From an uncultured bacterium (lineage in GTDB: Bacteria; Patescibacteriota; JAHJAL01), in the NCBI GenBank assembly GCA_938004065.1, contig CALKWM010000020.1, positions 1,813-65,812 of the forward strand: a stretch of DNA of 64,000 nt, given 5' to 3'. Shown here one piece after another: positions 305-22,047 of this stretch (position 1 is the stretch's first letter; the number at the start of each line of letters is the position of its first letter). The notes under the pieces are model-generated. The model saw nothing but the letters and a program-made list of their open reading frames with translations. It was not told the origin of the DNA and searched no databases. The translations under genes were made by a program, and so were the position numbers.

Positions 305-340
305 AAACTTCCTTTAAAAAGATATAAAGATGGGCAGTAT

Positions 341-1236: not shown

Positions 1237-1247
1237 AATGTTAAGTG

Positions 1248-3085: not shown

Positions 3086-3086
3086 A

Positions 3087-3965: not shown

Positions 3966-4090
3966 TTTATTTTCTTAAGAAATAGAATGACACCATATTA
4001 CCCCTCATTAATTAAAAAAATCAAATTTTCTGTCCCTTTAAAACCACCAAAGGCCTGAAATTATCACAAGATAAAAAATTTATTTTCTAC

Positions 4091-4248
4091 AACGTGCCGC
4101 GGCTGATCCGATCGTGGCCAAAGGCCGCCGCAGGCGAGCCGATGGACATGTCGGATAGCCGCTGTTAGACGACGTCGCGGAGCGACGGAGGATAACGGGG
4201 GCGAAGCCGCGGCACGTTAGACAACGAGCGAAGCGATGTTGGCTAACG
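4091..4248 (+). repeat. GC-rich palindromic repeat module A, copy 1
   Basis: About 158 bp. Its ends, aacgtgccgcggct...agccgcggcacgtt, are perfect inverted complements. Internal hairpins include ggcc-aaa-ggcc, ccga-tggacatg-tcgg and cgacgtcg. It is visibly GC-rich against AT-rich surroundings. Confidence 0.85.
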
Positions 4249-4251
4249 TTT

Positions 4252-4388
4252 GCGTGTATGAGAAGTTTCGCCGACTTCCTTATTATTCATTATAGAGGAG
4301 GCGAAATTTGGGTGAAAGAAAAAGTGCAACCTTTGAAAATATTTAACGCACTTTTTCTTGAACCTCATACACGCTGTTATACGCTGTT
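4252..4388 (+). repeat. Structured repeat module B, copy 1 (always 3' of module A via a ggctaacgt junction)
   Basis: gcgtgtatgag...ctcatacacgc is a terminal inverted repeat. Inner stems are tttcgcc/ggcgaaa and aaaagtgc/gcactttt. Confidence 0.8.
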
Positions 4389-5048: not shown

Positions 5049-5068
5049 GTTTGAAATTTTAGTATAGG

Positions 5069-5352
5069 GCGAAATTGCGTATAATGGGCGGCGTTTATGC
5101 AACGTCTTGTATGGACGAAATCGTAAGATTTCGGACAGACGGGATGTAGCGAAGCGGTGCATAAACGACAGTTGTGCGAAGCTCCGCCTAAGCACATACT
5201 GGCGTGAAACGCCGCCCATTGTGCAAAATGAAGCGAAGCGGAATTTTGCACAACGTATCGGCATATCTGATGTTTGCCGTAGCGTAGCGGAGGCAAATAT
5301 GGGTGGAGGCTTTTGTATAAAAGCCGTAACCAGATATGCCGTGTTAGCTGAT
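5069..5352 (+). repeat. Mosaic repeat module E (A-like 5' part + B-variant 3' part)
   Basis: It begins attgcgtataatgggcggcgttt (cf. attgcgtataacgtgccgcggct of A). Its stems are aatgggcggcgttt and aaacgccgcccatt. It ends with ggaggcaaatatgggtggaggctttt...agccgtaaccagatatgccgtgttagctg, as the 341-472 variant does. Confidence 0.7.
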
Positions 5353-5419
5353 GTATTCCTTTTCTTTTTTCCGACAGCAGTCGGAATTGTTTTAAAAAAT
5401 TTTCAAATTTCTTTTTACG

Positions 5420-5537
5420 TTTTGGATTTTGGGCAGAGGGGTTAGGGGTGAATGCCCAAAATTCAAAACACAATATTTCTTTTTCGTTTGAGGGAGGGGC
5501 AAGAGGGGAATTAAAGGGGTGAATTGCCCCGACCGAA
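5420..5537 (+). repeat. Twin-hairpin repeat module C, copy 1 (3' of a minus-strand gene)
   Basis: attttgggca-gaggggttaggggtgaa-tgcccaaaat, then ggggcaa-gaggggaattaaaggggtgaa-ttgcccc. Both are perfect stems. Confidence 0.8.
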
Positions 5538-5543
5538 TTCTAC

Positions 5544-6535
5544 TTACTTGTTTTTGTATGGTGTCCATTGGGGGTTTTCTTTGATATATTCTTTTAAATA
5601 ATTAAGCGTTTTATTAGAATATTTTTGCACTTTTGATGTTTTTCCAGATTTAATCGAGGTGTGATATTCAGGATTATTTAATAATTTTAAATGTTTTATT
5701 AATTTTTGAATAAAATATGATGTTACATTCATTATACGAGAAAGGTCTGATTGTAAAAATGGATAATCAACTTCAGGATTACTTTTTTTGACTAAAACTG
5801 TAAGTGATTCCGATGTCTTTTTTGCTTTATTTGTAGTAATTTCAGATTTGTATCCTTTTGACGTTTCTACTGGCACTATAATAACATTCTCTTGCTTGTT
5901 TGTATAATCGTTTATTGACAAATGTCGACCAATTCTAGCTTTTTTTTGTTTTGATTTTATGTCATTTAGCCAATCCTTGTGACTAATAAATGTATTTTCA
6001 TTTTCGGTTTCGGCAAACTTGCAAGCACGATCAAGAATATATAACGCTCTATTTTTTTCTGACTTTGATTTTCTTGAGTATGCAAATAATCTACCTATCT
6101 TGTGTGAGTAAAATGTATGATCTTTAAATGCGACAGATAGATAATTTTTATCAAACTTTATAAAATATGATCTAAATTCTTCCTTTAGAATTTTATGAAA
6201 AGATTTTAAAGACCAGTAAATTAAGTGAGTTATGATTTCATCATCAAGATCGGGATAAATATTATGTAGTGATTCATTTCTTAAAGATATAATTTGTTGA
6301 ATTGTTTGATTTTCTTCCAATGATATTAAATGAGCTACATGGTGTAATTGATTGACTGCTTTATTAAAATTGCCTTGGAAAGCAGTTCCCATGCTTGCGC
6401 ATTAAATATTACTGATGCTTGCCTAGAGTGCGATCCCTCAACTCTATTGAACATTTCTATGCTTAATTTTGCAGCGTTTATGGCTGTATTCACGTGGTAT
6501 TGATATTTCATTATACGTGATTTTCTTTTTGCCAT
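5544..6535 (-). CDS. Hypothetical protein split over two overlapping frames (6335..6535 and 5544..6392); possibly frameshifted, with an N-terminal R-x4-H (HEPN-like) motif
   Basis: The two minus-strand ORFs overlap by 58 bp in different frames, directly downstream of the large MTase. The upstream piece contains AINAAKLSIEMFNRVEGSHSRQ, an R-x4-H pattern. Confidence 0.3.
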
Positions 6536-6536
6536 A

Positions 6537-9500
6537 TTATTTTATTGAATTTTCTACAATTTCAATTTCCTCTGGCGTAAGTTCGTAGAGTTTATAAACA
6601 AGCTGATCAATTTGCGATTCAAGATTTTTAGTATCCGCGTCTTTATTTTGTTTTTTGAGAGTTAAAATTTGATCAACTAATTTTACTAATGAATCTTGTG
6701 ATTCCTGACTGTTACGAATAATAGGAATTTGTGACATAGAGCCATTTTTTTGAGCTAAAAAATATTTATATCCACCACCTGCGTCCTTACCCTCATTTTT
6801 ATACCAAAAATTTAAAAGCTTTGAATTTAAAATAGCGACAATGTATTTTAATGCTAAGTCTGAATTTTCTTTTTTTAATAAAACAGGAACATTACCCACG
6901 GTAAAATAATTATCATCATCATAACTAAAACGATTTTCATCTGAGCGATAAGGTGTTAAAATTTTTTCTTGTTCAAAAAATTCCTTTTTTCTTGGCCAAT
7001 TTATGCTATACCATGGTATCTTGCCACTAACGCACTCTCGTTTTTTTTCTAATAAAACACGATATTTTTCAAGGTGTTTTTTTATATTTGGATACTTTTC
7101 TATGTGATGATCTTTTGTTATATAAATTAAATAATGTCTTTTGCTTCTTCTATTGGTAGCAAATTTCTTTACTTCATCAGTTGTAATCCAATCTTTTATT
7201 AATTCCTTTTTTTCTTCCAAATTTGGGCTTATTTCTGTTAAATCATTTTCTGTTAAGATAAAAATGCCTTTATTGGCTTCCCAATTTTTATTATATTTTG
7301 TTGCCAAAGTATTTGTAACTTTATCCGCACCTGTAATTATCCCTTGTTTAATTTCACAATATTCTGAAATAGGTTTACCTTTTTTCTTAATTTTATTTAT
7401 TAAATCTAAAACATCGGAAGATTTTGCATTTTCTGCGGGGATATCAATAATTAAATCATTCCCTTTATATAATTGTTGTTGTTCGAGGGAAGCGTAAAGA
7501 GATTTTTTATCTGACCAATCAAAAATAGATCTAAGAATTTCCGAATCAGCAAAACCTTTATTTTGCGTGCTACATATATTCGCTAAAAAATTTTTATCTG
7601 TGTTTTTTTCTAAAATTGTTATTATATTATGTTGCCCTAGAGCTGATTTGAATATTTTTAAATCATTGAAATTGATCAACTTTTTTATTATAGTACGTTT
7701 TTTAAAATCTTCTCTCAAGATTTTTGCCCCATTGGAAGATAGATAATAATTTGTTGTTATAAAAGATAGTTGTCCACTTTCTTTTAACAAATTTAATGAT
7801 CTATGAAAAAAGAAGTAGAACAAATCCATTCTACGTTTGTAAAAATTACCAAGAGACCCCATTCTCACAATTCTAAATATTTCTTTATGTCCTTTTTCAC
7901 CAACATACGGTGGATTTCCTATCACAACATCAAAGGCTTGAACCCCGTGCATTAATTCCGGATCGTAAAATTCTGAAGATGAGCTAATATCAAACGGTTT
8001 ATAGCTTTTTAATTGCTGTGTTTTTTTGTTATCAAACAAACTAGCATTTTGCGTAAGCTTTAGATAATCCTTTTGCAATTTTTCTTTTTTTATTTTGCTA
8101 CTTGTTTTGAAATATTCATTCCGAATAGTTATCAATTTATCTTTTAGATCATGGTCGGTAAGAAATGTTGCTTGCTCAGTGTTATCAAGCGGAATAAGTG
8201 TGTTGGCGCAAACAAATTTAAACTCAAGGTTTGGCAATGGGTCAACCTTTTCACCTTCTGGAATATCCACAATTATTGAAAGCCAAGCTCGCAGACGAGT
8301 GATCTCAATGGCTGTTTGTTCAATATCCACACCATAAAGTGATCGTGATAAAATATCTCGTTTTAATCCCGAAATATCTTTTTCAAATTTTGGATCAAGG
8401 CGAGAATATACTTTCACGAGTAAATGAAGCATGCCCATCGGAAAAGCACCAGATCCAACCGCAGGATCAAGCACTGTGAGAGGAGATTCTGTTTTTGAGC
8501 CTTCAAGCGCTTTTATAATAGCTTCACGATACGGCTTCCAATCACGACGTTTATTTTGATCCTGATCACGGAATATTGCTTCAGGCATACGCACAAGCTC
8601 TTCTATACGACGATCACGATCTGGGGCTTCTGGAACTTTAGTCTTGAGATATTCAATCAAGGATTGCTCGCACATATAGCTCACGATTTCTCGCGGAGTA
8701 TAAAAAGCACCGGTGGCTTTCTTTTTGCTATTGCCCGTATTTTCGTCAATTTGCTCTGCAAGCAAACTCTCAAAAATACGCCCCAACATTTCAGGATCAA
8801 TAGCGACATGCTGGAATTCCGGACTACTTTCATCAACTGTAAAATTGTATTTATTTAAGGTTGTAAAAAGTTGATTAAAATAACCATTTGGAAAAGTTAG
8901 TTTTGGGTCGTTGAAAAAATCAGTCGTGTTTTTATCAAAAAGACCACCGTTCAAATAAGGAGTCAATTTATCGCCGTTATCTCTTTCTAGTTCTTCTCGA
9001 TTTAATACTTCAAAAAAAAGTTTTTCCAGTTGGTTTTTGTAGTATTCTGATTGTTTTTCCGGATCAATCACCGAAAAATAATTAACATTATTATTTACTA
9101 AATTTTTCTTTTTCAAAAACCAAATAAAAAGCAAACGTCCAATAAGTCTGGTCGTGAACATTACTGACTGTTTGCGTCCAAAATCTTTTTCAAGATGGTG
9201 TACTAAAATGCTAAAATGTTCAACCAATTCAAGGTAAAATTTGCGATTGATCGGTTCAAAGTTGAAGCTTTCCCAAAGTTTTGAGTGTAAAGTATTTTTT
9301 AATTCAGCCTGATCAGCAATCTCTAATTCGGAAAGTTTCGCCCATTGAGTAAATATTTCTAATTGGGTTGGGGTAATATGATCTTTTAATTCAAGAGCGC
9401 GAATCTTAAATCTATTAGAAAGCAAAACTATTATACTATCGCAGGTTTCTGGTACAACAAAATCAATCCCTATATTTTTATAATCATTTGAAAGTGCATC

Positions 9501-9824
9501 TTCAAAATTTGGAGTAAGACCAATAATCCACGAAAGATTTGTTTTGCTAGTTTTTTTGACCCAAAAAAGTTTAAGATCAACTGGTTTTCCGTCTTCGTGC
9601 GGTAATTCATACGCCGCCGCTTGGCGAGCAAAACCTGGAGCAAGTTGAAATCTCGTTAATTCCGCGTCTACGCGAGGTATATTTACCAAAAATCTGTCTG
9701 TGGTTTTTATATTGAGTAGCCCAACCAGTTCCGTCGTAATTTTTTCCGCGACATCAAAAGATCTTTCATTTGAAAGTTGTTTTAAGAGTTGGTCAAATTT
9801 GTTTTTTATCTCTAGGGTATTCAT
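6537..9824 (-). CDS. Large gamma-class N6-adenine DNA methyltransferase (Type IIG / PglX / Type ISP-MTase-like) with a long N-terminal domain and a C-terminal putative TRD
   Basis: GAFYTPREIVSYM (motif I/X region) and VIGNPPYVGEKG (motif IV NPPY) are present. About 350 aa precede the MTase core and about 400 aa follow it. The start lies 4 bp after the stop of the upstream helicase gene. Confidence 0.8.
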   Translation of the reverse strand: MNTLEIKNKFDQLLKQLSNERSFDVAEKITTELVGLLNIKTTDRFLVNIPRVDAELTRFQLAPGFARQAAAYELPHEDGKPVDLKLFWVKKTSKTNLSWIIGLTPNFEDALSNDYKNIGIDFVVPETCDSIIVLLSNRFKIRALELKDHITPTQLEIFTQWAKLSELEIADQAELKNTLHSKLWESFNFEPINRKFYLELVEHFSILVHHLEKDFGRKQSVMFTTRLIGRLLFIWFLKKKNLVNNNVNYFSVIDPEKQSEYYKNQLEKLFFEVLNREELERDNGDKLTPYLNGGLFDKNTTDFFNDPKLTFPNGYFNQLFTTLNKYNFTVDESSPEFQHVAIDPEMLGRIFESLLAEQIDENTGNSKKKATGAFYTPREIVSYMCEQSLIEYLKTKVPEAPDRDRRIEELVRMPEAIFRDQDQNKRRDWKPYREAIIKALEGSKTESPLTVLDPAVGSGAFPMGMLHLLVKVYSRLDPKFEKDISGLKRDILSRSLYGVDIEQTAIEITRLRAWLSIIVDIPEGEKVDPLPNLEFKFVCANTLIPLDNTEQATFLTDHDLKDKLITIRNEYFKTSSKIKKEKLQKDYLKLTQNASLFDNKKTQQLKSYKPFDISSSSEFYDPELMHGVQAFDVVIGNPPYVGEKGHKEIFRIVRMGSLGNFYKRRMDLFYFFFHRSLNLLKESGQLSFITTNYYLSSNGAKILREDFKKRTIIKKLINFNDLKIFKSALGQHNIITILEKNTDKNFLANICSTQNKGFADSEILRSIFDWSDKKSLYASLEQQQLYKGNDLIIDIPAENAKSSDVLDLINKIKKKGKPISEYCEIKQGIITGADKVTNTLATKYNKNWEANKGIFILTENDLTEISPNLEEKKELIKDWITTDEVKKFATNRRSKRHYLIYITKDHHIEKYPNIKKHLEKYRVLLEKKRECVSGKIPWYSINWPRKKEFFEQEKILTPYRSDENRFSYDDDNYFTVGNVPVLLKKENSDLALKYIVAILNSKLLNFWYKNEGKDAGGGYKYFLAQKNGSMSQIPIIRNSQESQDSLVKLVDQILTLKKQNKDADTKNLESQIDQLVYKLYELTPEEIEIVENSIK

Positions 9825-9827
9825 AGG

Positions 9828-12800
9828 CTAATTATTATCTCTAGAAAATCCAAATATAGGGTTTACAGAAACTACTTTAACAGCTTGCTTCTCTTCAGGT
9901 AATATTTTCTTGATTTTTTCCAAAATACTGTCTCTTTCGGATAATTTTCCCTCGCGGATAACTTCACGAAGTTGTTTAGTTAATTTTCTAGCAATACGAC
10001 CATGAAAAACATTTCTCGTCATGAGTAGGCTTTCCAAACGCGCGCGATCAGACGCACTCCAGCCAACATTCATTGCCTCATCTAAAATTGTTTGTTGGGA
10101 AGGTGTTAATCTCTGAATATTACTATCAAAACGAGTTATTTGTGGGCCATTCTTTGATACATATTCAAGGTGTAGTTTCTTATTAAGAGTAATATTGTCT
10201 TTTTTTCTTTCTTGATCATTTGATCTTAATGTTTGCAGAGCTTCACCAGTAAGCAACACATCCAAAGCATTGGCACTTTTATTATTACGAAAAAAAGTAA
10301 ATTGTTTTTGATTGTTGGAAAATTCTGATTGAGAAAAAACAAGGACTTCCGGTGATTGCAAAATTTTCGTTTGATCCACGACACCCCACTTAAATACAGG
10401 TATTTTTTCTAAAGCATTTTGTGCTTCTGGTGTTGCTTGTTCTTTGAAATGTTTTAAATCCGCAATAAACTGATCGTCAGTAAAAACATCAGCTTCTTTT
10501 TCTAAACGCAAATATTCTGCAGTAGCAGTGTCGCTATCTGTGTCATAAATACCCTTATAATTAATTGGGTTAATTTGCTCTCCTAAAACAGATGAATCAC
10601 TTCCGATCGTTGCGTTGATCAGACTTATTTTATCTTCAAGTTTTGTTACCAAGCCAAGAAATTGATCTAACTCTTTATTTGGAACAATATTGATTACCTC
10701 AACCTCTGAATGAGGTGATCCAAGCCTATTAATACGACCGTTTCTTTGAATCATGCGAACCGGGTTCCAATGAAGATCATAATTTATAAGCAATCCACAA
10801 TCTTGTAAATTTTGTCCTTCAGCAAGAACATCAGTACTAAACAAATAAGTTAATTCCTCTTTTTCAGAAACACGTTCGCGCGCATCTTTTGCAACAGGAG
10901 CAAACCTTTCCGCTGATCGCATTGCATCTGCTTTCTCTTTACCAGATACAAATTCTGTATTTTCGGTAGTGAAAATATTTTTTTTATTATTTAATACATT
11001 TTCTTTTAAATATTTTATTGTGTCAGCAAAAAAAGAAAAAACAAGTATTTTTTTATTTGGATTTTTTTTAGCAATTTTAGTCACTTTTTCTAAAAATACT
11101 GCCAGTTTTTTATCTTTATTTTTAAACTGTTCGGTTAATTCTATTATTACGGCAAGTATTTCCTTTTCAGTAGCAATGTCTTCTTTAAGAGCTTTAATAT
11201 TGTGAGAATTTGTAGATACTTTTGTTCCAAGTTTTTTTGCTTTTTCAAGAATTTCTTCATCTGTTAAATCCAAATTTTCTCCATCCTCTGCTTCATATTC
11301 ATCTAAAATATCATCTATGTCAGAAAGATTTAGTAATAAGTTTTCTTGAAGAAAAATATCTTCGAATGTTTTTAATCTTTTTTGATATCTTTTTACTGAC
11401 GCTAGTAGTGCATATGATGATGATTCAAATCTTTTCAACCATACAATACGCAATAATCCATACATACTTAATTGTAGTCCGATTTTTTCTTTTGTTTCTT
11501 TGGTAAATTTAATATTTTTTATTTCATCAAGAGTCTTACCATAAACCTTGTGATCATACATTGATGTTCTATATGGTATAAAAGATAAAGAAAGAATATA
11601 TTGATATAAACGATAAATAATTGATTTGCCAGTGATATTCATGGTCTCTTTTTTTAATTCTTCTAATTGTCGTAATGGGTGAATTAAGATGTCAGTTGTT
11701 TCCTGAATTTTTTCAACAGGGGTTTTTTCAATTGACTCAATAACTGAATCAATTATTATACTTTGATATTCGCCGGAATTAAAAGTTTCATTGGAGACCT
11801 TGATTTTAGGAAAGAAAAACTCTTTACCATCTATTTCCAAACCATTACCGTTCAATTCTTCTTCAATACTTTGACGAGTATTTCTAATAACAAATTCACG
11901 TAAAATAGGATCAATTACTTGGCGTGCTTCTTTATAAATAGGTGTCATATCATTACCTTGCGCGCGATTTTGACTAATTTTTTTCTTTAGCTCAAATAAA
12001 GCATCGAAAAACGATCTTGATTTAATAACACCTTCAGAATTACGAACATTGACCTGTAAAAGATCTTGTTCACCACGAGTACCAAGCAAAATTTGATTTG
12101 TTAAGTCATCAATAGAATTATTTACTGGTGTTGCAGTAAGAAGTAGTGTATTGGCATCTGAATTATCAACTAACCATTCGCTTATTTGTTGAAAACGTTT
12201 ACTATTATGAGATCGCAAATTATGTGATTCATCTATAACAAATAAACTAATTGGTATATATTGGTCTTTTTTTCTTTCTTCATCTATTTGATTTTTATTT
12301 TGCATAGAAATAACCGTGATGCCTAGAATTTTCTCTCTAGCTATTTCGTTTTCCCACTGACCAACTAATGATTTTGGAGCAATCACAATTATTCTTCGTC
12401 CTATATATTGACGAATAACGCCAATTGCAGTAATTGTCTTACCTAAACCAACCGAATCTGCAAGCATTGCAACGCCGTTTTTATCTAAACGCCAAAGTAT
12501 TTGTTTGACACTTCTTTCTTGAAAATTTTGTAATTTACGTGAAGATAATGCTTCAATTTTTCGATCCTCTTTTAAAAGGTCTCCATACATATGATCAAGT
12601 GTCTTGATATACATTTCATACGGACTAAAAAGCATTTCTCCATGAATAGAAGTATCTATTAACTCTATAAACTTACCGGTCCATTCGACACAGCCCTCAT
12701 CTGTCCAAACCTCTTCAAACCAAGACAAGTGCCCATGTTCCTGATCCTTATTTTTAGGATTAAACTGGACTACGCGCTGATCGTCTTCGCCGGCATTTAA

Positions 12801-13262
12801 TTCGCGATTTGAAGTAATGCCATTTTTTGTAAAATTAGAAGAACCTATGACACCGATTGCTGTTTCGGATTCAAAATTACCAAAAATATAACATTTAGCA
12901 TGCAAAAATGCTTTTTTAAAAACTTTTACTTCAAGGATTTTATTATCAACTAATTGTTTTAACTCTTTTACTGTTGGTTTTAAATTACTGTCGATTTTTA
13001 GTTTTTGCAGATCTTCAAAAATATCTTTGTCTGGAAAATCTGGTTCAACTTCATTTAGTTGGTGTCGTGGGATTAAGGGTTCTCGACCAATAAGTAAACG
13101 AATTTTTTTATATTTTTTCAAATGAGGTAAAAGCAAAGCAGTCGCCTCAAGATCCCAATATCCAGTAGCAATAGAAATTTCATCAAAGTTAGCACTAACA
13201 GAAATTAGACTATTTAATAAATCTACTCTAGTATTGTCGATGATTTTTGGAAATTTTTTCAT
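9828..13262 (-). CDS. PLD-family nuclease fused to an SNF2/SWI2 helicase (SF2 ATPase)
   Basis: An N-terminal HKD motif is intact: LHAKCYIFGNFESETAIGVIGSSNFTKNG. Helicase motifs present are LADSVGLGKTITAIGV (I), VIDESHNLRS (II) and LLLTATPVNN (III). The C-terminal lobe reads EGQNLQDCGLLINYDLHWNPVRMIQRNGRINRLGS (V-VI). Confidence 0.85.
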   Translation of the reverse strand: MKKFPKIIDNTRVDLLNSLISVSANFDEISIATGYWDLEATALLLPHLKKYKKIRLLIGREPLIPRHQLNEVEPDFPDKDIFEDLQKLKIDSNLKPTVKELKQLVDNKILEVKVFKKAFLHAKCYIFGNFESETAIGVIGSSNFTKNGITSNRELNAGEDDQRVVQFNPKNKDQEHGHLSWFEEVWTDEGCVEWTGKFIELIDTSIHGEMLFSPYEMYIKTLDHMYGDLLKEDRKIEALSSRKLQNFQERSVKQILWRLDKNGVAMLADSVGLGKTITAIGVIRQYIGRRIIVIAPKSLVGQWENEIAREKILGITVISMQNKNQIDEERKKDQYIPISLFVIDESHNLRSHNSKRFQQISEWLVDNSDANTLLLTATPVNNSIDDLTNQILLGTRGEQDLLQVNVRNSEGVIKSRSFFDALFELKKKISQNRAQGNDMTPIYKEARQVIDPILREFVIRNTRQSIEEELNGNGLEIDGKEFFFPKIKVSNETFNSGEYQSIIIDSVIESIEKTPVEKIQETTDILIHPLRQLEELKKETMNITGKSIIYRLYQYILSLSFIPYRTSMYDHKVYGKTLDEIKNIKFTKETKEKIGLQLSMYGLLRIVWLKRFESSSYALLASVKRYQKRLKTFEDIFLQENLLLNLSDIDDILDEYEAEDGENLDLTDEEILEKAKKLGTKVSTNSHNIKALKEDIATEKEILAVIIELTEQFKNKDKKLAVFLEKVTKIAKKNPNKKILVFSFFADTIKYLKENVLNNKKNIFTTENTEFVSGKEKADAMRSAERFAPVAKDARERVSEKEELTYLFSTDVLAEGQNLQDCGLLINYDLHWNPVRMIQRNGRINRLGSPHSEVEVINIVPNKELDQFLGLVTKLEDKISLINATIGSDSSVLGEQINPINYKGIYDTDSDTATAEYLRLEKEADVFTDDQFIADLKHFKEQATPEAQNALEKIPVFKWGVVDQTKILQSPEVLVFSQSEFSNNQKQFTFFRNNKSANALDVLLTGEALQTLRSNDQERKKDNITLNKKLHLEYVSKNGPQITRFDSNIQRLTPSQQTILDEAMNVGWSASDRARLESLLMTRNVFHGRIARKLTKQLREVIREGKLSERDSILEKIKKILPEEKQAVKVVSVNPIFGFSRDNN

Positions 13263-13295
13263 AATAATTTAGTTTACCTGTTGTTATTGTATTCG

Positions 13296-13354
13296 TTTTC
13301 CCCTTATTAATAAATCGTTTTCGTAGCGGAGCGGAGAAAACACCTTATTCCCCT
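13296..13354 (-). promoter_or_regulatory. Conserved 58-bp leader element D, copy 1 (upstream of the PLD-SNF2 gene)
   Basis: The minus strand reads agaggggaataaggtgttttctccgctccgctacgaaaacgatttattaataaggggaa, about 35 nt upstream of ATG 13262. Confidence 0.5.
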
Positions 13355-13398
13355 CTATAATTAAAGAAAAAGAAATTTGAAAATTTTTTAAAACAATT

Positions 13399-13590
13399 GG
13401 GCGATAGCCCAAAAAAGAAAAGGAATATTTCAGCTAACGTTCCAGCGTATGCGATGTTTTTGCGACCAACGGGAGCAAAAATATGGGAGAGGGGCGAGCC
13501 GAGCCCCGAACCGCATACGCTGTGTTATACGCCCCGACGACCGAAGGGAGGAGAGCGCAGCGGGGCGCGACTGAAAGGAGCGAGTTCAAA
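13399..13590 (+). repeat. Mosaic repeat module F (same family)
   Basis: It contains gctaacgttccagcgtatgcgatg ... ccgcatacgctgtgttatacgc (B-like arms), ggagcaaaaatatgggagagggg and a GC-rich tail. Confidence 0.65.
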
Positions 13591-13655
13591 AAATATTTTT
13601 CATTCAATTTCATTTTGACAGGCTTTTTATTCAATAATTATAAATTTGTTTTTTT

Positions 13656-13768
13656 GTTTTGGATTTTGGGCAGAGGGGTTAGGGGTGAATGCCCAAAATC
13701 CAAAACTCCTTATTCTGTTTGAGGGAGGGGCAAGAGGGGAATTAAAGGGGTGAATTGCCCCGACCGAA
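13656..13768 (+). repeat. Twin-hairpin repeat module C, copy 2
   Basis: About 95% identical to copy 1. It lies 7 bp from the stop of the 13775..14695 MTase gene. A partial relative is at 2545-2576. Confidence 0.8.
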
Positions 13769-13774
13769 AACATT

Positions 13775-14695
13775 TTATTTCAATATTTTGTATTTTTTCT
13801 TATCAAGCAACTTTAGATCGCCTTTGCTCTTCCAAATTTCTTTGAAATCTTTGTTTCTCATAGTCCTAATGTGTCCAAGGTAAACTGAAACAAAATGCCC
13901 GTTGATTTTTGTTTCTTTTGTTGCCTTGATATTTTTTTCAGCAATTTTTACATAATCAGAATCAAGCTCAATTCCAATGTATTTTCTACCTAGTTGTTTA
14001 GCCGCAACCGCAGTTGTGCCAGTTCCCATGAATGGGTCAAGTACTACATCATCTTCATCTGTGGTCATTAAGATCAATCTCTCAAGTAGAGGGATTGGGA
14101 GTTGACAAGGATGTTCATCTCTTCGCTTTTTATGCCGGATCCGATGAATATCATTCCAAACATCAGAAAGTAATGGCCCAAAACCATGGGCTTGATCTTT
14201 TTTACCGCCGTAATCTTTTAAAAATTCATCACAAGTTCTACATCTTGGGTGCGGATATCTAATGTCATTAAATTTAAAATCTTTATGAGATTTTGATTTT
14301 GTATAATATAAAATTCCATAATGATTTGGTAATAAAGTTTTACCCATTGGTGCGCCGCCAGAATCCCAAGCAATCCAATGTCTGAAATATGCAATTTTAT
14401 TTAAATGCTCCGCATAATGCGAAAGCCAACGAGGAATATTGTGAACAAAAATTGCACCGGTTGGTTTTGTAATCCTGACCATTTCGCTCATCCAATCATT
14501 ACACCAATTCAAATAATCTTGCTTTTCTTTTGAATCCTCATAGTGATTATATTTTTTCTTTAAATTAAAAGGCGGATCGGCAAAAGTCATATCTACCGAA
14601 TTATCCGGTATTTCTTTCAATACCTTTAGGCAATCGCCCTTAACAATTGTATTTATATAGTTTTTTTTCATAATTAAGATATTGTTAAATTCCAT
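13775..14695 (-). CDS. Beta-class N4/N6 DNA methyltransferase
   Basis: Motif IV MTFADPPFNL is N-terminal and motif I DPFMGTGTTAVAAKQLG is C-terminal. It is a paralog of the 1248..2174 MTase. Its start overlaps the stop of the upstream gene by 22 bp. Confidence 0.85.
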   Translation of the reverse strand: MEFNNILIMKKNYINTIVKGDCLKVLKEIPDNSVDMTFADPPFNLKKKYNHYEDSKEKQDYLNWCNDWMSEMVRITKPTGAIFVHNIPRWLSHYAEHLNKIAYFRHWIAWDSGGAPMGKTLLPNHYGILYYTKSKSHKDFKFNDIRYPHPRCRTCDEFLKDYGGKKDQAHGFGPLLSDVWNDIHRIRHKKRRDEHPCQLPIPLLERLILMTTDEDDVVLDPFMGTGTTAVAAKQLGRKYIGIELDSDYVKIAEKNIKATKETKINGHFVSVYLGHIRTMRNKDFKEIWKSKGDLKLLDKKKYKILK

Positions 14696-16362
14696 ACATT
14701 CATAGCAATTTCTGCTAATTTTTCTTGCCGATTTTTTATTGACTCAGCTGACCATTCATTATAATCGTCATTTATCATTTTAGTTATCCATAAATCAGAA
14801 CTTTGATATCTAGATTTTTTATCTGTAAAAGGAGCATTTCCTTCTTCTGAGTTTGGTCGTGATTGCATTAATGTTAAGTTGCCAATACGATTTTTATATT
14901 CATTCAGTTCCTCTTCGGAAAAATTAGGCCAATTTTCGCTTGGATTTTTTGGGAGAATATGCTCTAAATTAACAGCGCTGGGATCACTATTAACTAAAAG
15001 TTCCGGATCATCTATACCACCTCTTTTATGATTTTCGATGGCCCTCAAATAATAGCGAGCATATTTTTCAGTGCTAGATTTTGCATAAATAAACTTATCT
15101 TTAAATTCGCTATCAGATGGAATAATATGTTGAAGAGCGGTTTTTAAATCCGTAGCATTATTTATTTTCCCCTCCGCTATATCTTTGGCCTTTTTAGCAT
15201 ACTCGACTTCAAGTGTACCTCCTCCAAGAGAGCCAGTTATTAAATTTCTAACGAGCCATGAAACAATTAATTTTAATGATTTTCGAATCTCTTGTTTGTT
15301 GGTGAATTTTTTGAGAATTGATAATAGCAAAGGCCTGTATTGTTCCAAATTAAAAAAATTTAATGTTTCAATGTATTGTTTTACTTTTGGATCAAAATCG
15401 TTCCAATATTGATGATTATGATTAACGATTGCTAAATATAGAGAAGTATCATTTTTTAAATTATTAACAAAAGTAATTGATTGTGTCGTATTGCGAATTT
15501 GACTTTTTATATCATTGTACAACTCCCTGTTTTTTTCTCTGGTAAGTCCGTTTTGGGCAGACCAATAATGCTTAATATATCTCAATATTAAACTTTCATT
15601 TTCTGCTGTTTCTATTTGAGATGTCATTTCAATCCAAGTATTTTGAATTTCCTCAATCCGATCACTTGCTTTGCTATATAAATAATTTTTAAGAAGATCT
15701 ACTTGCGCTAATTCCAAGCCCCTATCATTAAGAGTTTCGCAAATTGTGAAAGCGTTGGCTTTACTTGGGACAGTTATTGTCACGACTTTAAGTTTGTCAG
15801 ATATAAATTCTATCCAGTCATGCAAAATATTCAAATTCGCATCCGATAATTCGGCCAATTTATTTATTTTTTGAATTGATAGTTGTTTGGTATTTTTTAT
15901 TCTTTCGTGAGATTCCTTTGTTGACAAAGTAGCTTCATTTTTATTAACAATATATTCTCTAAAAAATATATTATCCAAATTGCCCAATTTAATTTTAGGA
16001 AGATGCTCTCCTGTACGCCTGTTAAATATACTCAAAAAGTCTTGTTGTATAGAATTGGCTTGTTCGTCTTCACTTCTTTGTCTAAAAAATTGTTCTACTG
16101 CTGATAAAAAAATATAAATGGAAGTAATTCTTTGTTGGCCATCAACGATCTCGAGCTCGTCAGAGTTTTCTTTTTCAGAAAAAACAATAGTTCCGAGAAA
16201 ATATTCATTTTCATTATTGCTAATTGCATTATGAATATCATTGAACATATCATCAATATGTTTTTTTTCCCATGCATAAGGACGTTGATATATTGGCACC
16301 GCGAGTTGATGCTCTTTTATCACCTTTCCGATCCCTTTAATTTGAAAGTTAATGCTACTCAT
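14674..16362 (-). CDS. DUF262(ParB-like NTPase/nuclease)-DUF1524(HNH) protein, GmrSD-like
   Basis: The N-terminus shows the DUF262 DGQQR signature in ...IYQRPYAWEKKHIDDMFNDI...EIVDGQQRITSIYIF. The C-terminus has an His-Me finger-like LEHILPKNP. Gene order matches GmrSD/SspE/BrxU-type enzymes. Confidence 0.75.
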   Translation of the reverse strand: MSSINFQIKGIGKVIKEHQLAVPIYQRPYAWEKKHIDDMFNDIHNAISNNENEYFLGTIVFSEKENSDELEIVDGQQRITSIYIFLSAVEQFFRQRSEDEQANSIQQDFLSIFNRRTGEHLPKIKLGNLDNIFFREYIVNKNEATLSTKESHERIKNTKQLSIQKINKLAELSDANLNILHDWIEFISDKLKVVTITVPSKANAFTICETLNDRGLELAQVDLLKNYLYSKASDRIEEIQNTWIEMTSQIETAENESLILRYIKHYWSAQNGLTREKNRELYNDIKSQIRNTTQSITFVNNLKNDTSLYLAIVNHNHQYWNDFDPKVKQYIETLNFFNLEQYRPLLLSILKKFTNKQEIRKSLKLIVSWLVRNLITGSLGGGTLEVEYAKKAKDIAEGKINNATDLKTALQHIIPSDSEFKDKFIYAKSSTEKYARYYLRAIENHKRGGIDDPELLVNSDPSAVNLEHILPKNPSENWPNFSEEELNEYKNRIGNLTLMQSRPNSEEGNAPFTDKKSRYQSSDLWITKMINDDYNEWSAESIKNRQEKLAEIAMNVWNLTIS

Positions 16363-16364
16363 AA

Positions 16365-17354
16365 TTATTTTTTTATAAAAGTGTCAAGTAATAGCTTTTC
16401 AAACCGTTTTAATTCTTCCTTATGAAAAGTAAAAACATCCTCATAGGCTGTAACCATTCTTTTTAGATCGCCTTTTCTGACATACCAACCAACACCATCC
16501 ACAAAACCAATAAATTTCGCCTTTGGATAATGCGACTTGATAAGTGAATCAATAGAAATCTCTGTTTTTGATTTATCGCCTTGACCGGATGAAGTTGTTA
16601 CCAAAAATGAGCTTTCGGCAATAATTAACGGATTTTGTTTGTTCGGAATAATAAAATCCATCGTTCTTTTATTATCGGGGGCATTGTCAATTAGTTCGCT
16701 GAGGTCGCCCTTTTCAAACGGTATTTCTAAATGATTTAAAATTTCTTCAATTAAAATTTCCGGATTATTTTCTTTCATTCCGGAATAGCTGCCTTTTTCT
16801 TTATATCTAATTAAAGTGTCGATCATTTCCGGCAATTCAAATTTTAGTTTTGAAATACTTAGTTTCTTCAATTCAAATAGCGGAATAGTTTTTGTTAAAA
16901 ACGGAACTGTTGAACCTTCAAAGAAAATATTTAAAATTCCTTTTCTGAAAAATTCATTTTCTTTTATAAATTTTGCTATTTGAGCGTCTGACCACTCTTT
17001 CAGATTATTTATATCTTCATCCTTAAACCATTTGTCCTTATAAACCAACTTACTCAATTCTGGATCATTAACAACTCTAATAATTGTAGTCAATCTTTTT
17101 AAGGTTTCGTTTGAAAATCCGGTCAAAGCAAGCAACGCCCTAAGACCATTTTCTTTTTCAATTAGTAGCTGTTCAAAAAATTCCTTTTTCAATCCCTGTG
17201 TTTCAATATTATTTTTCAATATCAAAAGCATTTCTTTTAACGAGTTTAGATAACCTTCATATTTTTCTTCAAAAGCTGGATTGAAAAAATAAAAAGTATT
17301 TTTATCAATCACAGTTTTAAATTTCAATTCGGTTGTAGGTTTTGTGTATTTCAT
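16365..17354 (-). CDS. Hypothetical protein; candidate restriction endonuclease partner of the adjacent alpha-class MTase
   Basis: The 329-aa ORF sits 5 bp after the MTase stop and 2 bp before the DUF262 gene. It has a possible nuclease core MDFIIPNK...IIAESSF. No confident motif was found. Confidence 0.3.
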   Translation of the reverse strand: MKYTKPTTELKFKTVIDKNTFYFFNPAFEEKYEGYLNSLKEMLLILKNNIETQGLKKEFFEQLLIEKENGLRALLALTGFSNETLKRLTTIIRVVNDPELSKLVYKDKWFKDEDINNLKEWSDAQIAKFIKENEFFRKGILNIFFEGSTVPFLTKTIPLFELKKLSISKLKFELPEMIDTLIRYKEKGSYSGMKENNPEILIEEILNHLEIPFEKGDLSELIDNAPDNKRTMDFIIPNKQNPLIIAESSFLVTTSSGQGDKSKTEISIDSLIKSHYPKAKFIGFVDGVGWYVRKGDLKRMVTAYEDVFTFHKEELKRFEKLLLDTFIKK

Positions 17355-17359
17355 AATTG

Positions 17360-18610
17360 TTATTTTTGATTAGTAAAAAATAATATGGATTCCTCCTTCA
17401 TCGTATTTTGTAACCCCCGGATCGGCTTCTTTAAATTAAGTTCAAATTTTAGTCCTTGTTTTTCTCCAAGCTCAGTGACTTTTGTTTCCAGTCTCACGCC
17501 ATTTGTTTGAATATCGTTTGTGCCAATAATTATAACTATAGGCGCGTTTTTCTTTGATACCCGTTTCATTTCACCAAGGGCTTGATTCATTTTGTCAAAA
17601 TAAATTTCTAATTTATTTTCCACGCCTCGCCCCTGTAGGCCGATCATCTCTTGTCGCAAAACTTCCAGATCGTAGCCGAGATATTCTAATTGGGGCTGAT
17701 CATTTTTTAAATAATCAATAGCAAAAGAATAGGGCGGTGAAGTGATTACTGCGTCCACGCTATTATCACCAAGCGGCAAATTTAAAATACTACCTTGAAC
17801 GATTTTACTTTTTCCGATTTTTAAATCCATTTTTTTTCTTGCTTCTTGAAAATATTTTAACGTTGAAACATATCTGTCCAATACACGCGGGAAAAGTTTA
17901 TCAATAGAAGAACTGCTTCGGCCGGCAAATCCGACGGTATCTAAAAATGCTAATAAAATTATTTCATAGTAGTGTCTTTTTTTATCGTCTTTATTGTTTT
18001 TAAAATATTCTGGAACTTTGTCTTTTTTCAACTTATCCAAAATTTCTTTTGGATTTTTAATAATTGACTCTAAAATTTTAATATCCAAATTTAGAGCAAA
18101 TGTTTTAACTTTTCCCATTAGCTCACAAAATGGGCTTAAATCAACAGAGATAGCATCAATTCCGAGCAAATTAGCCTCAACTGCAACAGTAGAACTCCCG
18201 GCCATTGGATCAAGAACAACATGGCCGGGTTTTATATCAAGTATATTTAACAATGCCCTTATCAGTTGCGGGTGAAATTTTCCACGATATGGAAAAAGGC
18301 CATGAGTTGCGTATCCAGTTGAATATTTCCCGTCTAAAAAGAAAATTTTTGTCCGGAAAGAGCTATTTTTATGAACTTCTTCTAAATTTTGAAGGTTGCA
18401 AGTTTTATAATGAGCTGTTTCTTTCCCGTCAACTAATTTAAAATATGCGCTTCTTTCAACTAATTCTTTTTTTGATAAAACCTCATATTCCCACAAAGCT
18501 AAATCTAATTCAAAAATCTCATCAGTCCCGTCAATGAGATAAAAATTATTACCAAATAGCCTTTCTATGATCGGTTTATGCTTTGTAGTCATGATAGTAT
18601 TATAGTTCAT
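17360..18610 (-). CDS. Alpha-class N4/N6 DNA methyltransferase
   Basis: The motif I-like VVLDPMAGSSTVAVEA precedes AVITSPPYSFAIDY (motif IV) by about 150 aa. This is the I...TRD...IV order. Confidence 0.8.
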   Translation of the reverse strand: MNYNTIMTTKHKPIIERLFGNNFYLIDGTDEIFELDLALWEYEVLSKKELVERSAYFKLVDGKETAHYKTCNLQNLEEVHKNSSFRTKIFFLDGKYSTGYATHGLFPYRGKFHPQLIRALLNILDIKPGHVVLDPMAGSSTVAVEANLLGIDAISVDLSPFCELMGKVKTFALNLDIKILESIIKNPKEILDKLKKDKVPEYFKNNKDDKKRHYYEIILLAFLDTVGFAGRSSSSIDKLFPRVLDRYVSTLKYFQEARKKMDLKIGKSKIVQGSILNLPLGDNSVDAVITSPPYSFAIDYLKNDQPQLEYLGYDLEVLRQEMIGLQGRGVENKLEIYFDKMNQALGEMKRVSKKNAPIVIIIGTNDIQTNGVRLETKVTELGEKQGLKFELNLKKPIRGLQNTMKEESILFFTNQK

Positions 18611-18668
18611 TTCCCCTTATAAATAAATCGTTTTCGTAGCGGAGCGGAGAAAACACCTTATACCCCTT
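18611..18668 (-). promoter_or_regulatory. Conserved 58-bp leader element D, copy 2 (upstream of the alpha-MTase operon)
   Basis: Same sequence with 3 substitutions. It abuts ATG 18610. Confidence 0.5.
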
Positions 18669-18760
18669 TCTAATAAATAAAAAAACAAATTTATTCCCCT
18701 TTTTAAAAAGCCTGTCAAAATTCCTTATAAAAAGAAAAATATTTTTTGAATTGCGTATAA

Positions 18761-18916
18761 CGTGCCGCGGCTGATCCGATCGTGGCCAAAGGCCGCCGCA
18801 GGCGAGCCGATGGACATGTCGGATAGCCGCTGTTAGACGACGTCGCGGAGCGACGGAGGATAACGGGGGCGAAGCCGCGGCACGTTAGACAACGAGCGAA
18901 GCGATGTTGGCTAACG
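18761..18916 (+). repeat. GC-rich palindromic repeat module A, copy 2
   Basis: Identical over about 165 bp to copy 3 and nearly identical to copy 1. Same orientation. Confidence 0.85.
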
Positions 18917-18917
18917 T

Positions 18918-19056
18918 CCGCGTGTATGAGAAGTTTCGCCGACTTCCTTATCGTTTATTATAAAGGAGGCGAAATTTGGGTGAAAGAAAAAATGCAACCT
19001 TTAAAAATTATTAACGCACTTTTTCTTGAACCTCATACACTCTGTTATATGCTGTA
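18918..19056 (+). repeat. Structured repeat module B, copy 2
   Basis: About 95% identical to copy 1. Confidence 0.8.
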
Positions 19057-19379: not shown

Positions 19380-19544
19380 TTGCGTATAACGTGCCGCGGC
19401 TGATCCGATCGTGGCCAAAGGCCGCCGCAGGCGAGCCGATGGACATGTCGGATAGCCGCTGTTAGACGACGTCGCGGAGCGACGGAGGATAACGGGGGCG
19501 AAGCCGCGGCACGTTAGACAACGAGCGAAGCGATGTTGGCTAAC
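19380..19544 (+). repeat. GC-rich palindromic repeat module A, copy 3
   Basis: Same sequence as copy 2. It lies 110 bp upstream of the tyrosine recombinase gene. Confidence 0.85.
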
Positions 19545-19653
19545 TAGTATATATACGAAAAGTTTATCTTATAATATACTGAAAATAGTAGTGTATAAGT
19601 TTATCAAGTAAATATTTATTATTTATCTTAATTTTACATTTTTGTAATACTGT

Positions 19654-20466
19654 ATGCAAAAATATTTGGATTTAGCCAAAAGGGAATTGGAGATTAGAAA
19701 TTATAGTTCAAAGACTGTTGCAAGTTATTTAATTTCTTTGAAGAAATATTTTGAATTCAAGAAATTTGATTTCGGTGAATTTGATGAAAACAATTTGAAA
19801 GATTATTTATCGGTGCAAATAAAGCAAAAATTATCTCCTCAAACTATCAATCTCTCATTGAACGCTATTAAATTTTTTTACTATGAGATGATGGGGATAA
19901 AAACCAAGATCAATATTCGGAGTGTGAAAAAAGAACACAAATTACCGGTGGTTTTGTCCAAGGATGAAGTCAAACAAATTATCGATGTGATAAAAAATCC
20001 TAAACACAAATTGATGATTGCGCTCTCTTATAGTGCAGGTTTACGGGTGAGTGAAGTGATAGTGTTAAAAGTTGGAGATTTGGCGCTGGAAGAATTGATT
20101 GTGCATATTAGACAAGCAAAAGGCAAAAAAGACAGAATAAGTTTATTGCCGGAAAAGTTGGTGAATGATATTCGAAATATGATTGTTGGAAAATCTTCCC
20201 ATGATTTACTTTTTGTCAGTGAAAGAGGGGGTAAATTGACAACTAGATCGGCGCAAAAGATTTTTCAAAATGCTTTGCATAAATCCGGCATTAAAAAAGA
20301 AGCGACTTTTCATAGTCTTCGCCATAGTTTCGCGACGCATTTGTTGGAAAATGGTGTTGATGTGCGTTATGTTCAGGAGCTATTGGGCCACGCCAATATT
20401 AGAACAACTCAGATATATACTCATGTTACCAATCCGGCGATTAGAAATATTAAAAGTCCCTTATGA
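19654..20466 (+). CDS. Tyrosine site-specific recombinase (Xer/integrase family)
   Basis: The C-terminal catalytic region reads HSLRHSFATHLLENGVDVRYVQELLGHANIRTTQIYTHV, i.e. R..H-x-x-R...Y. The N-terminus has a SAM-like core-binding region. The stop codon lies inside a 46-bp repeat core. Confidence 0.85.
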   Translation: MQKYLDLAKRELEIRNYSSKTVASYLISLKKYFEFKKFDFGEFDENNLKDYLSVQIKQKLSPQTINLSLNAIKFFYYEMMGIKTKINIRSVKKEHKLPVVLSKDEVKQIIDVIKNPKHKLMIALSYSAGLRVSEVIVLKVGDLALEELIVHIRQAKGKKDRISLLPEKLVNDIRNMIVGKSSHDLLFVSERGGKLTTRSAQKIFQNALHKSGIKKEATFHSLRHSFATHLLENGVDVRYVQELLGHANIRTTQIYTHVTNPAIRNIKSPL

Positions 20467-20590
20467 GCCAAAATACCAAGCGAAAAAAGCATAAGAAAGA
20501 ACAAGAAATTTCGATTCCAATTGCTATGTGACTGGGTTGTTAAAAAATACCCCAAATGTCGGGTGGCGGATGTGGGTGGCGGAGTTTTTT
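20462..20590 (+). repeat. Direct repeat copy 1: truncated duplicate of the 5' end of the SAM-MTase gene, with a K-rich mini-ORF
   Basis: A 46-bp perfect core, ttatgagccaaaataccaagcgaaaaaagcataagaaagaacaagaa, followed by about 80% identity through gatgtgggtgg. It overlaps the recombinase stop codon. Confidence 0.8.
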
Positions 20591-21919: not shown

Positions 21920-22047
21920 TTATGAGCCAAAATACCAAGCGAAAAAAGCATAAGAAAGAACAAGAAGTTTCGGTTCCAGTTACTGAGTGACTGGATTGTT
22001 TCTAAATATCCAGAATGCAAGGTAGCCGATGTGGGTGGAGGTAAAGG
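21920..22047 (+). repeat. Direct repeat copy 2 (intact 5' end of the SAM-MTase gene)
   Basis: Same 46-bp core. It encodes the mini-ORF MSQNTKRKKHKKEQEVSVPVTE, followed out of frame by the MTase N-terminus. Confidence 0.8.

Follow-up and report, generated by a model that had tools for sequence, protein, structure and literature searches.

Integron cassettes are, in the textbook view, small 'promoterless' units that are expressed according to their position, and bacteria of the candidate phyla radiation (CPR, the Patescibacteria) largely lack CRISPR and rely on restriction-modification (RM) systems. Here we consider a 56-nt element that occurs twice on the minus strand of a 64,000-nt stretch of DNA (the window; contig CALKWM010000020.1, positions 1,813 to 65,812, assembly GCA_938004065.1) from an uncultured patescibacterial lineage, JAHJAL01, each time upstream of a defence operon. 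We propose that this element is, on balance, probably the core of a portable, cassette-borne promoter with an upstream dyad, used in an integron-like system that is found mainly in Patescibacteria. Our confidence in the structural description of the module to which the element belongs is much higher than in this functional reading.

The closest described parallels are the promoters that are active in gene-less cassettes of Vibrio superintegrons (PMC11014356) and those of toxin-antitoxin and Sucellos cassettes (10.1101/2024.07.02.601686). As in Vibrio, the promoter (here a predicted one) lies inside the cassette, which would make expression independent of the distance from the platform promoter (Pc), and the payloads are addictive or defensive. 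However, the Vibrio promoters are individual, unrelated sequences that often form a cassette of their own, whereas here, in many species, hundreds of different gene-bearing cassettes have one near-identical module of ~160 nt at their 5' end, at a fixed distance from the crossover and with a conserved dyad, and the promoter in this module is predicted from sequence. Classical integrons can also carry defence cassettes (10.1101/2024.07.02.601686; PMC9668308). The present array shares with them a divergent tyrosine recombinase, an attI with a GTTA crossover, cassettes with defence genes in a single orientation, and imperfect-palindrome attC sites with RYYYAAC...GTTRRRY-like ends. It differs in that the recombinase lacks the IntI-specific domain, the attC sites are long (about 100-150 nt), branched and flanked by inverted repeats, and the cassettes are multi-gene RM units of 2-8 kb rather than small and streamlined, many of them with their own promoter-like module.

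Two other kinds of element should be mentioned. Control by C proteins acts through the C-box, a dyad-symmetric element just upstream of RM genes; the present element has the same symmetry and placement, but no C gene accompanies it, it serves unrelated RM and non-RM genes, and its position is set by the cassette boundary and not by the R gene. The Correia elements of Neisseria and the 'putative mobile promoters' are small repeats that carry promoters. Like these, the module places homologous promoter-like DNA before non-homologous genes and is repeated enough to break assemblies; unlike them, it has neither terminal inverted repeats nor target duplications of its own, is never found in random intergenic sites, and is part of a site-specific recombination unit, with which it moves.

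A conserved module at the front of integron-like cassettes

The first 19.5 kb of the window are an integron-like array, in which minus-strand cassettes, separated by GC-rich attC palindromes, accompany an attI and a divergent tyrosine recombinase, and a repeat finder resolves its intergenic regions into a mosaic of repeats. The element was searched for as the 56-nt minus-strand string quoted in an earlier note on this DNA and is present as copy A (13353-13298, 0 mismatches) and copy B (18666-18611, 2 mismatches in 56 nt), while 100 shuffles of the string gave zero matches. The note's central observation, a conserved and non-random element upstream of two defence operons, is thereby borne out, although it had given the repeat as 58 bp with 3 differences. 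The note had also placed the element immediately upstream of both operons. Copy B does abut an ATG (18610), but this ATG lies inside the conserved module, in the promoter spacer, and copy A ends 36 nt before its ATG (13262). In the public annotation of the identical contig, the methylase behind copy B begins at ATG 18592, six codons after 18610, giving a protein of 410 aa, and the ATG at 18610 is likely to be a mis-set start of the open reading frame (ORF). The similarity between the two copies is also wider than 56 nt (94 nt at 84%, 13285-13378 and 18598-18691, repeat family D7) and runs on into a common -10-like hexamer, TACAAT (13291-13286) in copy A and TATAAT (18604-18599) in copy B.

The element is no private link between the two operons, but one of at least 279 copies at integron cassette 5' ends. 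An exact 22-mer from its centre is found in 113 stretches of GTDB species-representative genomes, overwhelmingly metagenome-assembled genomes of Patescibacteria from many classes. A minority of these records are labelled Bacteroidota, Gammaproteobacteria, Atribacterota or Archaea, labels that are either real or binning errors and that the GC content of the fetched loci (about 32-46%) does not settle. Many contigs stop within 50 nt of the element, as is expected of a repeat that breaks assemblies. A metagenome scan anchored on the flanks only gave at least 120 loci, and among the matches listed in this flank-anchored sample the 25 nt between the flanks are identical to the window in 76 of 122 copies. 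An nhmmer profile search of the fetched DNA (1.57 Mb) returned 279 copies from 233 public loci, and the core is exact in 195 of the copies. Part of the near-identity over ~150 nt is due to ascertainment through the exact 22-mer, and diverged copies retain the order and spacing of the conserved blocks. No account of this module or of integrons in CPR bacteria was found in the searched literature, an absence of matches that is no proof of novelty.

The element forms the core of a module of ~160 nt at the front of the cassette. When loci are compared, the sequences ahead of the G|TT crossover of the preceding attC or attI are unrelated; exactly at this crossover they become conserved, at close to 100% over the positions that follow. 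The module is always co-oriented with its cassette, and the payloads behind it are unrelated to one another. Among the 246 copies with enough upstream sequence, 224 (91%) have a cassette-start signature at a fixed place upstream, and in 205 of the 224 this signature lies 97-112 nt ahead of the hairpin (97 and 107 nt in the window copies). The signature test was used in place of a class of 'other' contexts, which consisted mostly of undetected attC or attI sites.

Two parts can be distinguished in the module. Part one extends from the crossover as far as ...AGGGG-(A/T)ATAAGGT and exists in at least four variants (v1-v4). It is mirrored, in inverted form, just ahead of the R'' box at the 3' end of its own cassette; the inverted repeat is in register and at least 17 nt long in 17 of 23 complete cassettes with a module. 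Part one has the look of a recombination site that has been extended outwards. We also observe that the cassette ends are inverted repeats far beyond the R boxes (5430-5351 against 13437-13360, and about 13665-13575 against 18760-18680), such that a circular form would embed the attC in a palindrome of ~300 nt. Part two is common to all variants and comprises the dyad, GATTTATTTATAA (conserved at 81-96%), GGGGAAAA, a few variable bases and TAYAAT. The dyad is followed by GATTTATTTAT, then by a G-rich spacer of 17 nt and TAYAAT, beyond which the sequences become cassette-specific. The two parts are separable, since cassette c9 (start 4093) has part one of variant v4 (4093-3966) up to GAGGGGTAATATGGTG (GGTG) and then diverges, without hairpin and without TAYAAT, and about 15 copies elsewhere have part two with no attC nearby, some of them between two genes.

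The 56 nt straddle the junction of the two parts: 12 nt at the end of part one are followed by the dyad and by 19 nt beyond it. The sequences at the two ends of the element, GGGGAATAAGG and ATAAGGGGAA, stand in direct and not in inverted orientation. In copy A (13298..13353, minus strand) the first of these segments, GGGGAATAAGGT, closes the inverted-repeat part; the dyad hairpin comes next, and GATTTATTAATAAGGGGAA covers the -35 region and the start of the spacer. The inverted-repeat part of copy A, the attC-proximal variant v1 (13342..13437, minus strand), starts at the G|TT crossover, whose G is 13438, and consists in order of a mini-hairpin, GGGCTATCGCCC (13410-13399), a T-run, an AT-rich tract and AGAGGGGAATAAGGT; its first ~75 nt recur inverted at the 3' end of its own cassette (5430-5351). 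The small GC hairpin and following T-run of v1, at 13412-13397, were flagged as terminator-like by a scan and lie upstream of part two. The dyad (13317..13341, minus strand) reads GTTTTC-TCCGCTCCGCTAC-GAAAAC, and the hexamer TACAAT (13286..13291, minus strand) follows 25 nt past the hairpin, with ATG 13262 23 nt further on. Copy B (18611..18666, minus strand), with its 2 mismatches to copy A, has an inverted-repeat part of variant v3 (18655..18760, minus strand) that starts at crossover G 18761 and whose TTTTGACAGGC... segment recurs inverted at the cassette 3' end (about 13665-13575). Its dyad (18630..18654, minus strand) is identical to that of copy A, and its hexamer TATAAT (18599..18604, minus strand) again lies 25 nt past the hairpin and is followed after 6 nt by ATG 18592, a leaderless layout.

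The dyad itself has a stem of 6 bp and a conserved loop, whose length ranges from 13 to 29 nt among copies. The stem covaries: 55 distinct versions contain 13 compensatory double changes at 4 of the 6 pairs, where 2.0 are expected, and 0 of 2000 shuffles reach this number, although the copies are related and the shuffle count is therefore no probability. The folding energy of the hairpin is no better than that of shuffles (z ~0). G-U wobble intermediates show no strand preference and are not favoured on the sense strand, which leaves RNA, single-stranded DNA and a symmetric protein site indistinguishable. A hairpin with a loop of the same family as the promoter-side dyad, TCCGCTaCGCTaC, is also found inside attC sites (window 5297-5273; related loci L014, L021, L025, L091 and L096). 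The bottom strand of both the attC-internal and the dyad loops reads GCGNAGC, a motif that forms very stable DNA mini-hairpins, and one locus, L010, looks like a deletion that joined an attC hairpin straight to the 3' half of the module.

As a separate observation, the G-run 5' of the dyad varies from 4 to 8 G among copies (L017, L028, L055, L058, L062, L067 and others), and two loci have G8-9 within the spacer of a canonical promoter (TTGACA...TAAGAT); such variation in homopolymer length could modulate expression (phase variation).

Several other identities for the element were tried and rejected. A leader peptide (GTG TTT TCT CCG...) was discarded because loop indels (13-29 nt) shift the frame, which rules out a conserved reading frame, and GGTG is GGAG in at least 5 copies. 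A stable RNA or DNA hairpin, or an intrinsic terminator, does not agree with a 6-bp stem and 13-nt loop that fold no better than shuffles and are followed by no U-run. A known RNA family was set aside as there is no Rfam match (only two tRNAs reach the gathering score in the window, and 13200-13800 gave chance-level matches at E up to 10). A miniature inverted-repeat transposable element or other insertion-type repeat would not fit the lack of terminal inverted repeats and the fixed cassette place of 91% of copies, and a phage or plasmid origin was rejected since megablast found no match to the element in 50,697 phage and 72,556 plasmid records.

A second conserved element stands at cassette 3' ends. 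It is a hairpin with a strongly covarying stem of ~17 bp and a conserved C-rich loop, TTCACCCC-N-CCCCTC, and its loops in the window lie, on the minus strand, at 13754-13734, 13689-13673, 5523-5503, 5452-5436 and 2565-2549. The fetched loci hold 173 copies, with a ratio of 168:1 in favour of the cassette strand, about 190-270 nt ahead of the next cassette start. One stem pair is CG in 79 and AT in 46 copies and another GC in 86 and CG in 30, with G-U nearly nil; no T-run follows the hairpin and no Rfam family matches it. A perfect repeat of 52 nt with four G-runs (GGGAGGGGCAAGAGGGGAATTAAAGGGG) is found at 5486-5537 and 13717-13768 (plus strand), a G-quadruplex-type motif opposite the cassette strand, and is C-rich in the mRNA sense.

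Payloads and promoter-like signals

The first ORFs after 231 copies of the element fall into 81 protein clusters, dominated by methylases and nucleases. The largest are N6 methylases (86), EcoRI-type methylases (11), type I/III helicase-nucleases (9), HaeIII (7), a PPDK-like protein (7), DUF4357 (5) and GmrSD, EcoRV and NucS-like proteins (3 each). As a control we took every cassette start preceded by an attC in the same loci, as found by a strict strand-specific detector. This detector, which replaced earlier ones that gave false positives inside genes or missed sites, itself still misses some; it found 191 sites across the fetched loci, 44 of them without an ORF behind the start, leaving 60 module-bearing and 87 module-less cassettes with an ORF. 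The first gene is a DNA methylase in at least 19 of the module-bearing cassettes and in 1 of the module-less ones (the BglII methylase of the window), and a nuclease or helicase in at least 8 of the former and, among the top 25 Pfam families, none of the latter. The remaining first genes are RadC, sugar-modifying enzymes and others behind the module, and mostly small GNATs, peptidases and unknowns without it. Overall, RM first genes make up roughly 28/60 of module-bearing and 1/87 of module-less cassettes (Fisher p = 2e-12, from approximate counts). Module-bearing cassettes are also larger, with a median first ORF of 375 aa against 163 aa and a median complete length of 3.2 kb against 1.2 kb. 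Non-RM genes, among them a glycosyltransferase, PPDK-like proteins, a rhodanese and RadC, are found behind the element as well, which is thus clearly a mark of large, mostly RM cassettes and specific neither to the two operons nor strictly to RM. With regard to the question of the platform promoter, module-less cassettes have 5' regions of 25-130 nt and module-bearing ones a promoter-like unit.

An ORF follows 229 copies, and in 194 of these the ATG lies at least 32 nt past the dyad. A -10-like hexamer, defined as matching TATAAT at 5/6 positions or more with A2 and T6, is present in 185 of the 194, in 143 cases exactly 25 nt past the dyad. Over 216 distinct downstream segments the hexamer frequencies are T 0.64, A 0.76, C/T, A 0.74, A 0.73 and T 0.72, and the neighbouring positions are variable. 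The distance from hexamer to ATG has two peaks, one at 6 nt, which is a leaderless layout seen in 19 cassettes of 8 unrelated protein clusters, and one at 20-28 nt. Both spacings occur in the window, as TATAAT-N6-ATG(18592) and TACAAT-N23-ATG(13262), and the public gene call that begins the methylase at the ATG 6 nt past TATAAT is an independent one. A candidate -35, TTTATT, lies 17 nt upstream of the hexamer and is conserved at 83-96%, with 3/6 identity to TTGACA.

We propose that part two is probably a promoter in which a good -10 (TAYAAT) is combined with a weak -35 (TTTATT). Transcription from it would start about 7 nt past the hexamer, at a predicted ~13279 for copy A and ~18592 for copy B, and the mRNAs would have short leaders or none. 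The dyad would then lie at about -37 to -61, as a control site that binds a protein or acts through DNA structure, and part one would be an enlarged recombination site joined to this promoter unit. Such a module would let large, mostly RM cassettes be transcribed wherever they are placed in the array. Methylase and nuclease pairs are addictive, so that position-dependent silencing would be useless or dangerous, and the same argument from addiction has been given for the retention of individual promoters by the toxin-antitoxin cassettes of Vibrio integrons (10.1101/2024.07.02.601686). The suggestion of the earlier note that the two operons share a promoter or operator remains the best reading, and is accompanied by the enrichment of RM genes across public loci.

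A number of points weigh against a promoter in part two. The consensus sigma-70 promoter scan called no promoter in either window copy, so that the -10 has to carry the promoter case by itself; the -35 agrees with TTGACA at half of its positions only, and -10-like hexamers arise easily in AT-rich DNA. In about 25 distinct cassettes the ORF starts 9-31 nt past the hairpin, which leaves no room for a hexamer at +25 and so calls for another promoter or for read-through, and at least 5 cassettes have a separate canonical TTGACA-N17-TATAAT further downstream. The near-identity of ~150 nt across many species exceeds what a promoter needs, and the hairpins of the same type inside attC sites point to a role at the level of DNA. 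The RM counts are tallies of Pfam families that may overlap slightly, and the transcription starts and all of the promoter steps are predictions made from sequence.

Rival readings of the dyad

One possibility is that the hairpin serves recombination and not expression, as an accessory site of an enlarged attC that acts in excision, integration or orientation, either by folding in single-stranded DNA or by binding the recombinase or a host factor. We regard this as unlikely, though of the alternatives it survives best. It would account for the presence of one type of hairpin, with a T-run stem and the loop TCCGCTnCGCTnC, in the attC ~45 nt before the crossover and again ~100 nt after it, always on one strand, for the apparent fusion of an attC hairpin and a module hairpin in L010, and for the GCGNAGC loops of the bottom strand, which suit a DNA mini-hairpin. 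The locking of the module to the crossover, the long inverted repeats at the cassette ends and a sequence identity far above promoter requirements are also in its favour. However, 87 attC-bounded cassettes in the same arrays do without the element, which is therefore not needed for cassette status, and the element tracks payload type (RM) and cassette size. Moreover, the hairpin-plus-promoter unit is also found away from attC sites, between genes, and the inverted-repeat part ends at GGTG, just short of the hairpin.

Another possibility, which we consider improbable, is that the element is part of the 5' untranslated region, with transcription driven from a point ahead of the hairpin, perhaps by a TAAGGT or TATAGA-like -10 beside the G-run. 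The hairpin and GAUUUAUUUAUAAGGGG would then be an mRNA 5' stabiliser or translation-initiation region, or a switch in which the CUCC-rich loop masks GGGG boxes that resemble Shine-Dalgarno sequences. The covarying stem, the two CUCC motifs in the loop and the two flanking G-runs are compatible with this, as are the cassettes with an ATG 9-31 nt past the hairpin, in which the start site must be upstream, and the few in which the ATG follows AAGGGG or AAGAGG at Shine-Dalgarno distance (L052, L040). Yet the best-conserved -10-like hexamer is downstream of the hairpin, the promoter scan gave no good -35/-10 pair upstream of it, and the leaderless layout recurs in 8 unrelated gene families. A hairpin as stable as its shuffles, with no Rfam family and with G-U intermediates that are not favoured on the sense strand, also argues against a structured RNA. 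Since TAYAAT and the predicted starts lie downstream, the element would not be transcribed from its own promoter, and it is probably neither the 5' leader nor the riboregulator that the earlier note had suggested.

The same note had raised a C-protein-like control, and an operator of this or another RM-specific kind that co-regulates both RM systems is in our view very improbable, despite the operator-like dyad symmetry and the strong enrichment of the element ahead of methylase and nuclease genes. Neither of the two cassettes, c4 and c5, contains a small ORF for a helix-turn-helix controller, and the top Pfam families of cassettes with a module include no helix-turn-helix family. Behind the element there are at least 5 unrelated methylase families, several nuclease families and non-RM genes, which makes auto-regulation by each payload impossible, and no known C-box motif was recognised in the element, without a formal scan. 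Finally, we give almost no credence to a functionless hitch-hiker, left over from common cassette ancestry or gene conversion and kept by recent spread, for although the copies are near-identical and the exact 22-mer inflates their apparent conservation, the hairpin is unchanged in 76/122 flank-anchored copies and its variants show compensatory stem changes, block order and spacing are kept in diverged copies, the -10 positions are conserved while their neighbours vary, and orientation and position are strict before unrelated payloads. As for the repeat debris that the earlier note had set against a regulatory role, the element does lie upstream of the predicted transcription start and is one of a family of repeats, but the contexts in which it occurs are ordered to a high degree and not random.

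These readings are not mutually exclusive, and the hairpin of the putative cassette-borne promoter could serve both recombination and expression.

The recombination platform and what it would mean

The recombinase gene (19654..20466, plus strand; 270 aa, with Phage_integrase and SAM-like domains) is divergent from the cassettes, which run on the minus strand from 19543 downwards. Its product passes the 'XerA/integron integrase' NCBIfam model NF040815 (227 bits, cutoff 220) and fails the integron-integrase subfamily model TIGR02249 (212 bits, cutoff 265). The best match is the Vibrio integron integrase (VchIntIA, 2a3v), but the additional domain that IntI has around patch III is absent, query residues 185-200 facing 190-247 of 2a3v with ~40 residues missing, and the alignment to archaeal XerA (5hxy) is contiguous from end to end. 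For this reason we call the system integron-like, and not an integron in the strict sense. Homologues of the recombinase stand beside similar arrays in related loci (L014, L026, L036, L043, L057, L079, L108, L112, L130, L165, L191 and L231 among them) and are 266-289 aa long in 40/46 cases. Integron finders that require the IntI-specific domain would presumably not call such arrays complete integrons.

The putative attI (19544..19653, minus strand) reads ...TTTTCGTATATATACTAG|TTAGCC, with its crossover G at 19544, and the same TTCGNATA...GTTA layout adjoins recombinase genes in other loci. The attC sites are GC-rich imperfect palindromes with an RYYYAAC-like R'' box, L'' and L' arms, a GTTA R' box and the G|TT crossover. 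Together with that of attI, the crossover bases are 19544, 19390, 18915, 18761, 13438, 5254, 5085, 4247, 4093, 2340 and 350. Each cassette begins with bases complementary to the R'' box of the attC at its own 3' end, which is what a unit that circularises should show. Cassette c4 (13439..18760, minus strand), which begins with module v3, encodes a methylase (18592/18610-17360), a DpnII-like nuclease, GmrSD and a methylase, and ends in C-loop hairpins and then its own attC (about 13532-13438), whose R'' box GCGTATAAC pairs with the cassette start TTATACGC. Cassette c5 (5255..13437, minus strand) begins with module v1, encodes the PLD-SNF2 protein (13262-9828), an Eco57I-like methylase (9824-6537) and a 282-aa ORF, and likewise ends in C-loop hairpins and its own attC (5350-5254), with R'' box CAGCTAAC pairing with the start TTAGCTG.

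Some further features of the array and its surroundings were noted. The first ATG of an HD-domain ORF, 5264, lies inside an attC, and ATG 5047, 37 nt past the cassette start, is more plausible. A GC-rich 'cassette' of ~150 nt without an ORF is present three times at 96-100% identity (19391-19543, 18762-18915 and 4094-4247) and consists of a mini-palindrome, GTTAGCCAAC...GTTGTCTAAC, followed by a perfect palindrome with 15-bp arms; a relative occurs once at 5086-5254, and similar units are found in L021, L041, L094, L097 and L109. A direct repeat of 122 nt (84%; 20461-20582 and 21920-22041) brackets a gene for an AAA_14/DUF4143 ATPase (20601-21779), located between the genes for the recombinase and an HI0933-like flavoprotein, and this gene with its flanking repeats may be an insertion beside the integron platform. 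The GC skew is +0.3 to +0.5 from 22000 to 64000, whatever the gene strand, and near zero or slightly negative in the array (1-19000), a contrast that is consistent with the cassettes being recent imports that have not yet been shaped by the replication-strand bias of the host. Elsewhere in the window, a 42-nt repeat (98%) with two GC-rich mini-hairpins lies on either side of tRNA-Ser(GCT) (58021-58111), at 57709-57750 and 58184-58225, and the ORF at 30044-30988 contains three diverged tandem repeats of ~300 nt (67-76%, at 30230-30982), which suggests a repeated protein domain.

A more far-reaching proposal, which we put forward tentatively and consider rather unlikely as a whole, is that CPR bacteria exchange RM systems through a distinct integron lineage, with an Xer-like recombinase lacking the IntI domain and a standard cassette 'chassis', in which the hairpin found both in attC and at the promoter could be a shared site for binding or folding that couples the state of recombination to expression. 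This chassis may comprise the enlarged attC with its mirrored flanks, the 5' promoter unit and the 3' hairpin with the C-rich loop. Since the payloads inside it are unrelated, such a uniform chassis could also throw light on the assembly of integron cassettes, a long-standing open question.

Large multi-gene RM cassettes share one nearly invariant start module in more than 100 CPR species. If the portable promoter and its integron-like setting are as we propose, CPR bacteria would trade ready-to-express RM cassettes through a platform that standard integron finders would miss or would label as clusters of attC sites without an integrase. A single short sequence would then make it possible to search metagenomes for such cassettes and for the unknown payloads that they carry, and the module would be a candidate for a portable promoter in organisms that have hardly any genetic tools. 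The connection of the attC hairpin with that of the promoter would, moreover, be a concrete and testable entry into the coordination of recombination with expression, and possibly into the making of cassettes.

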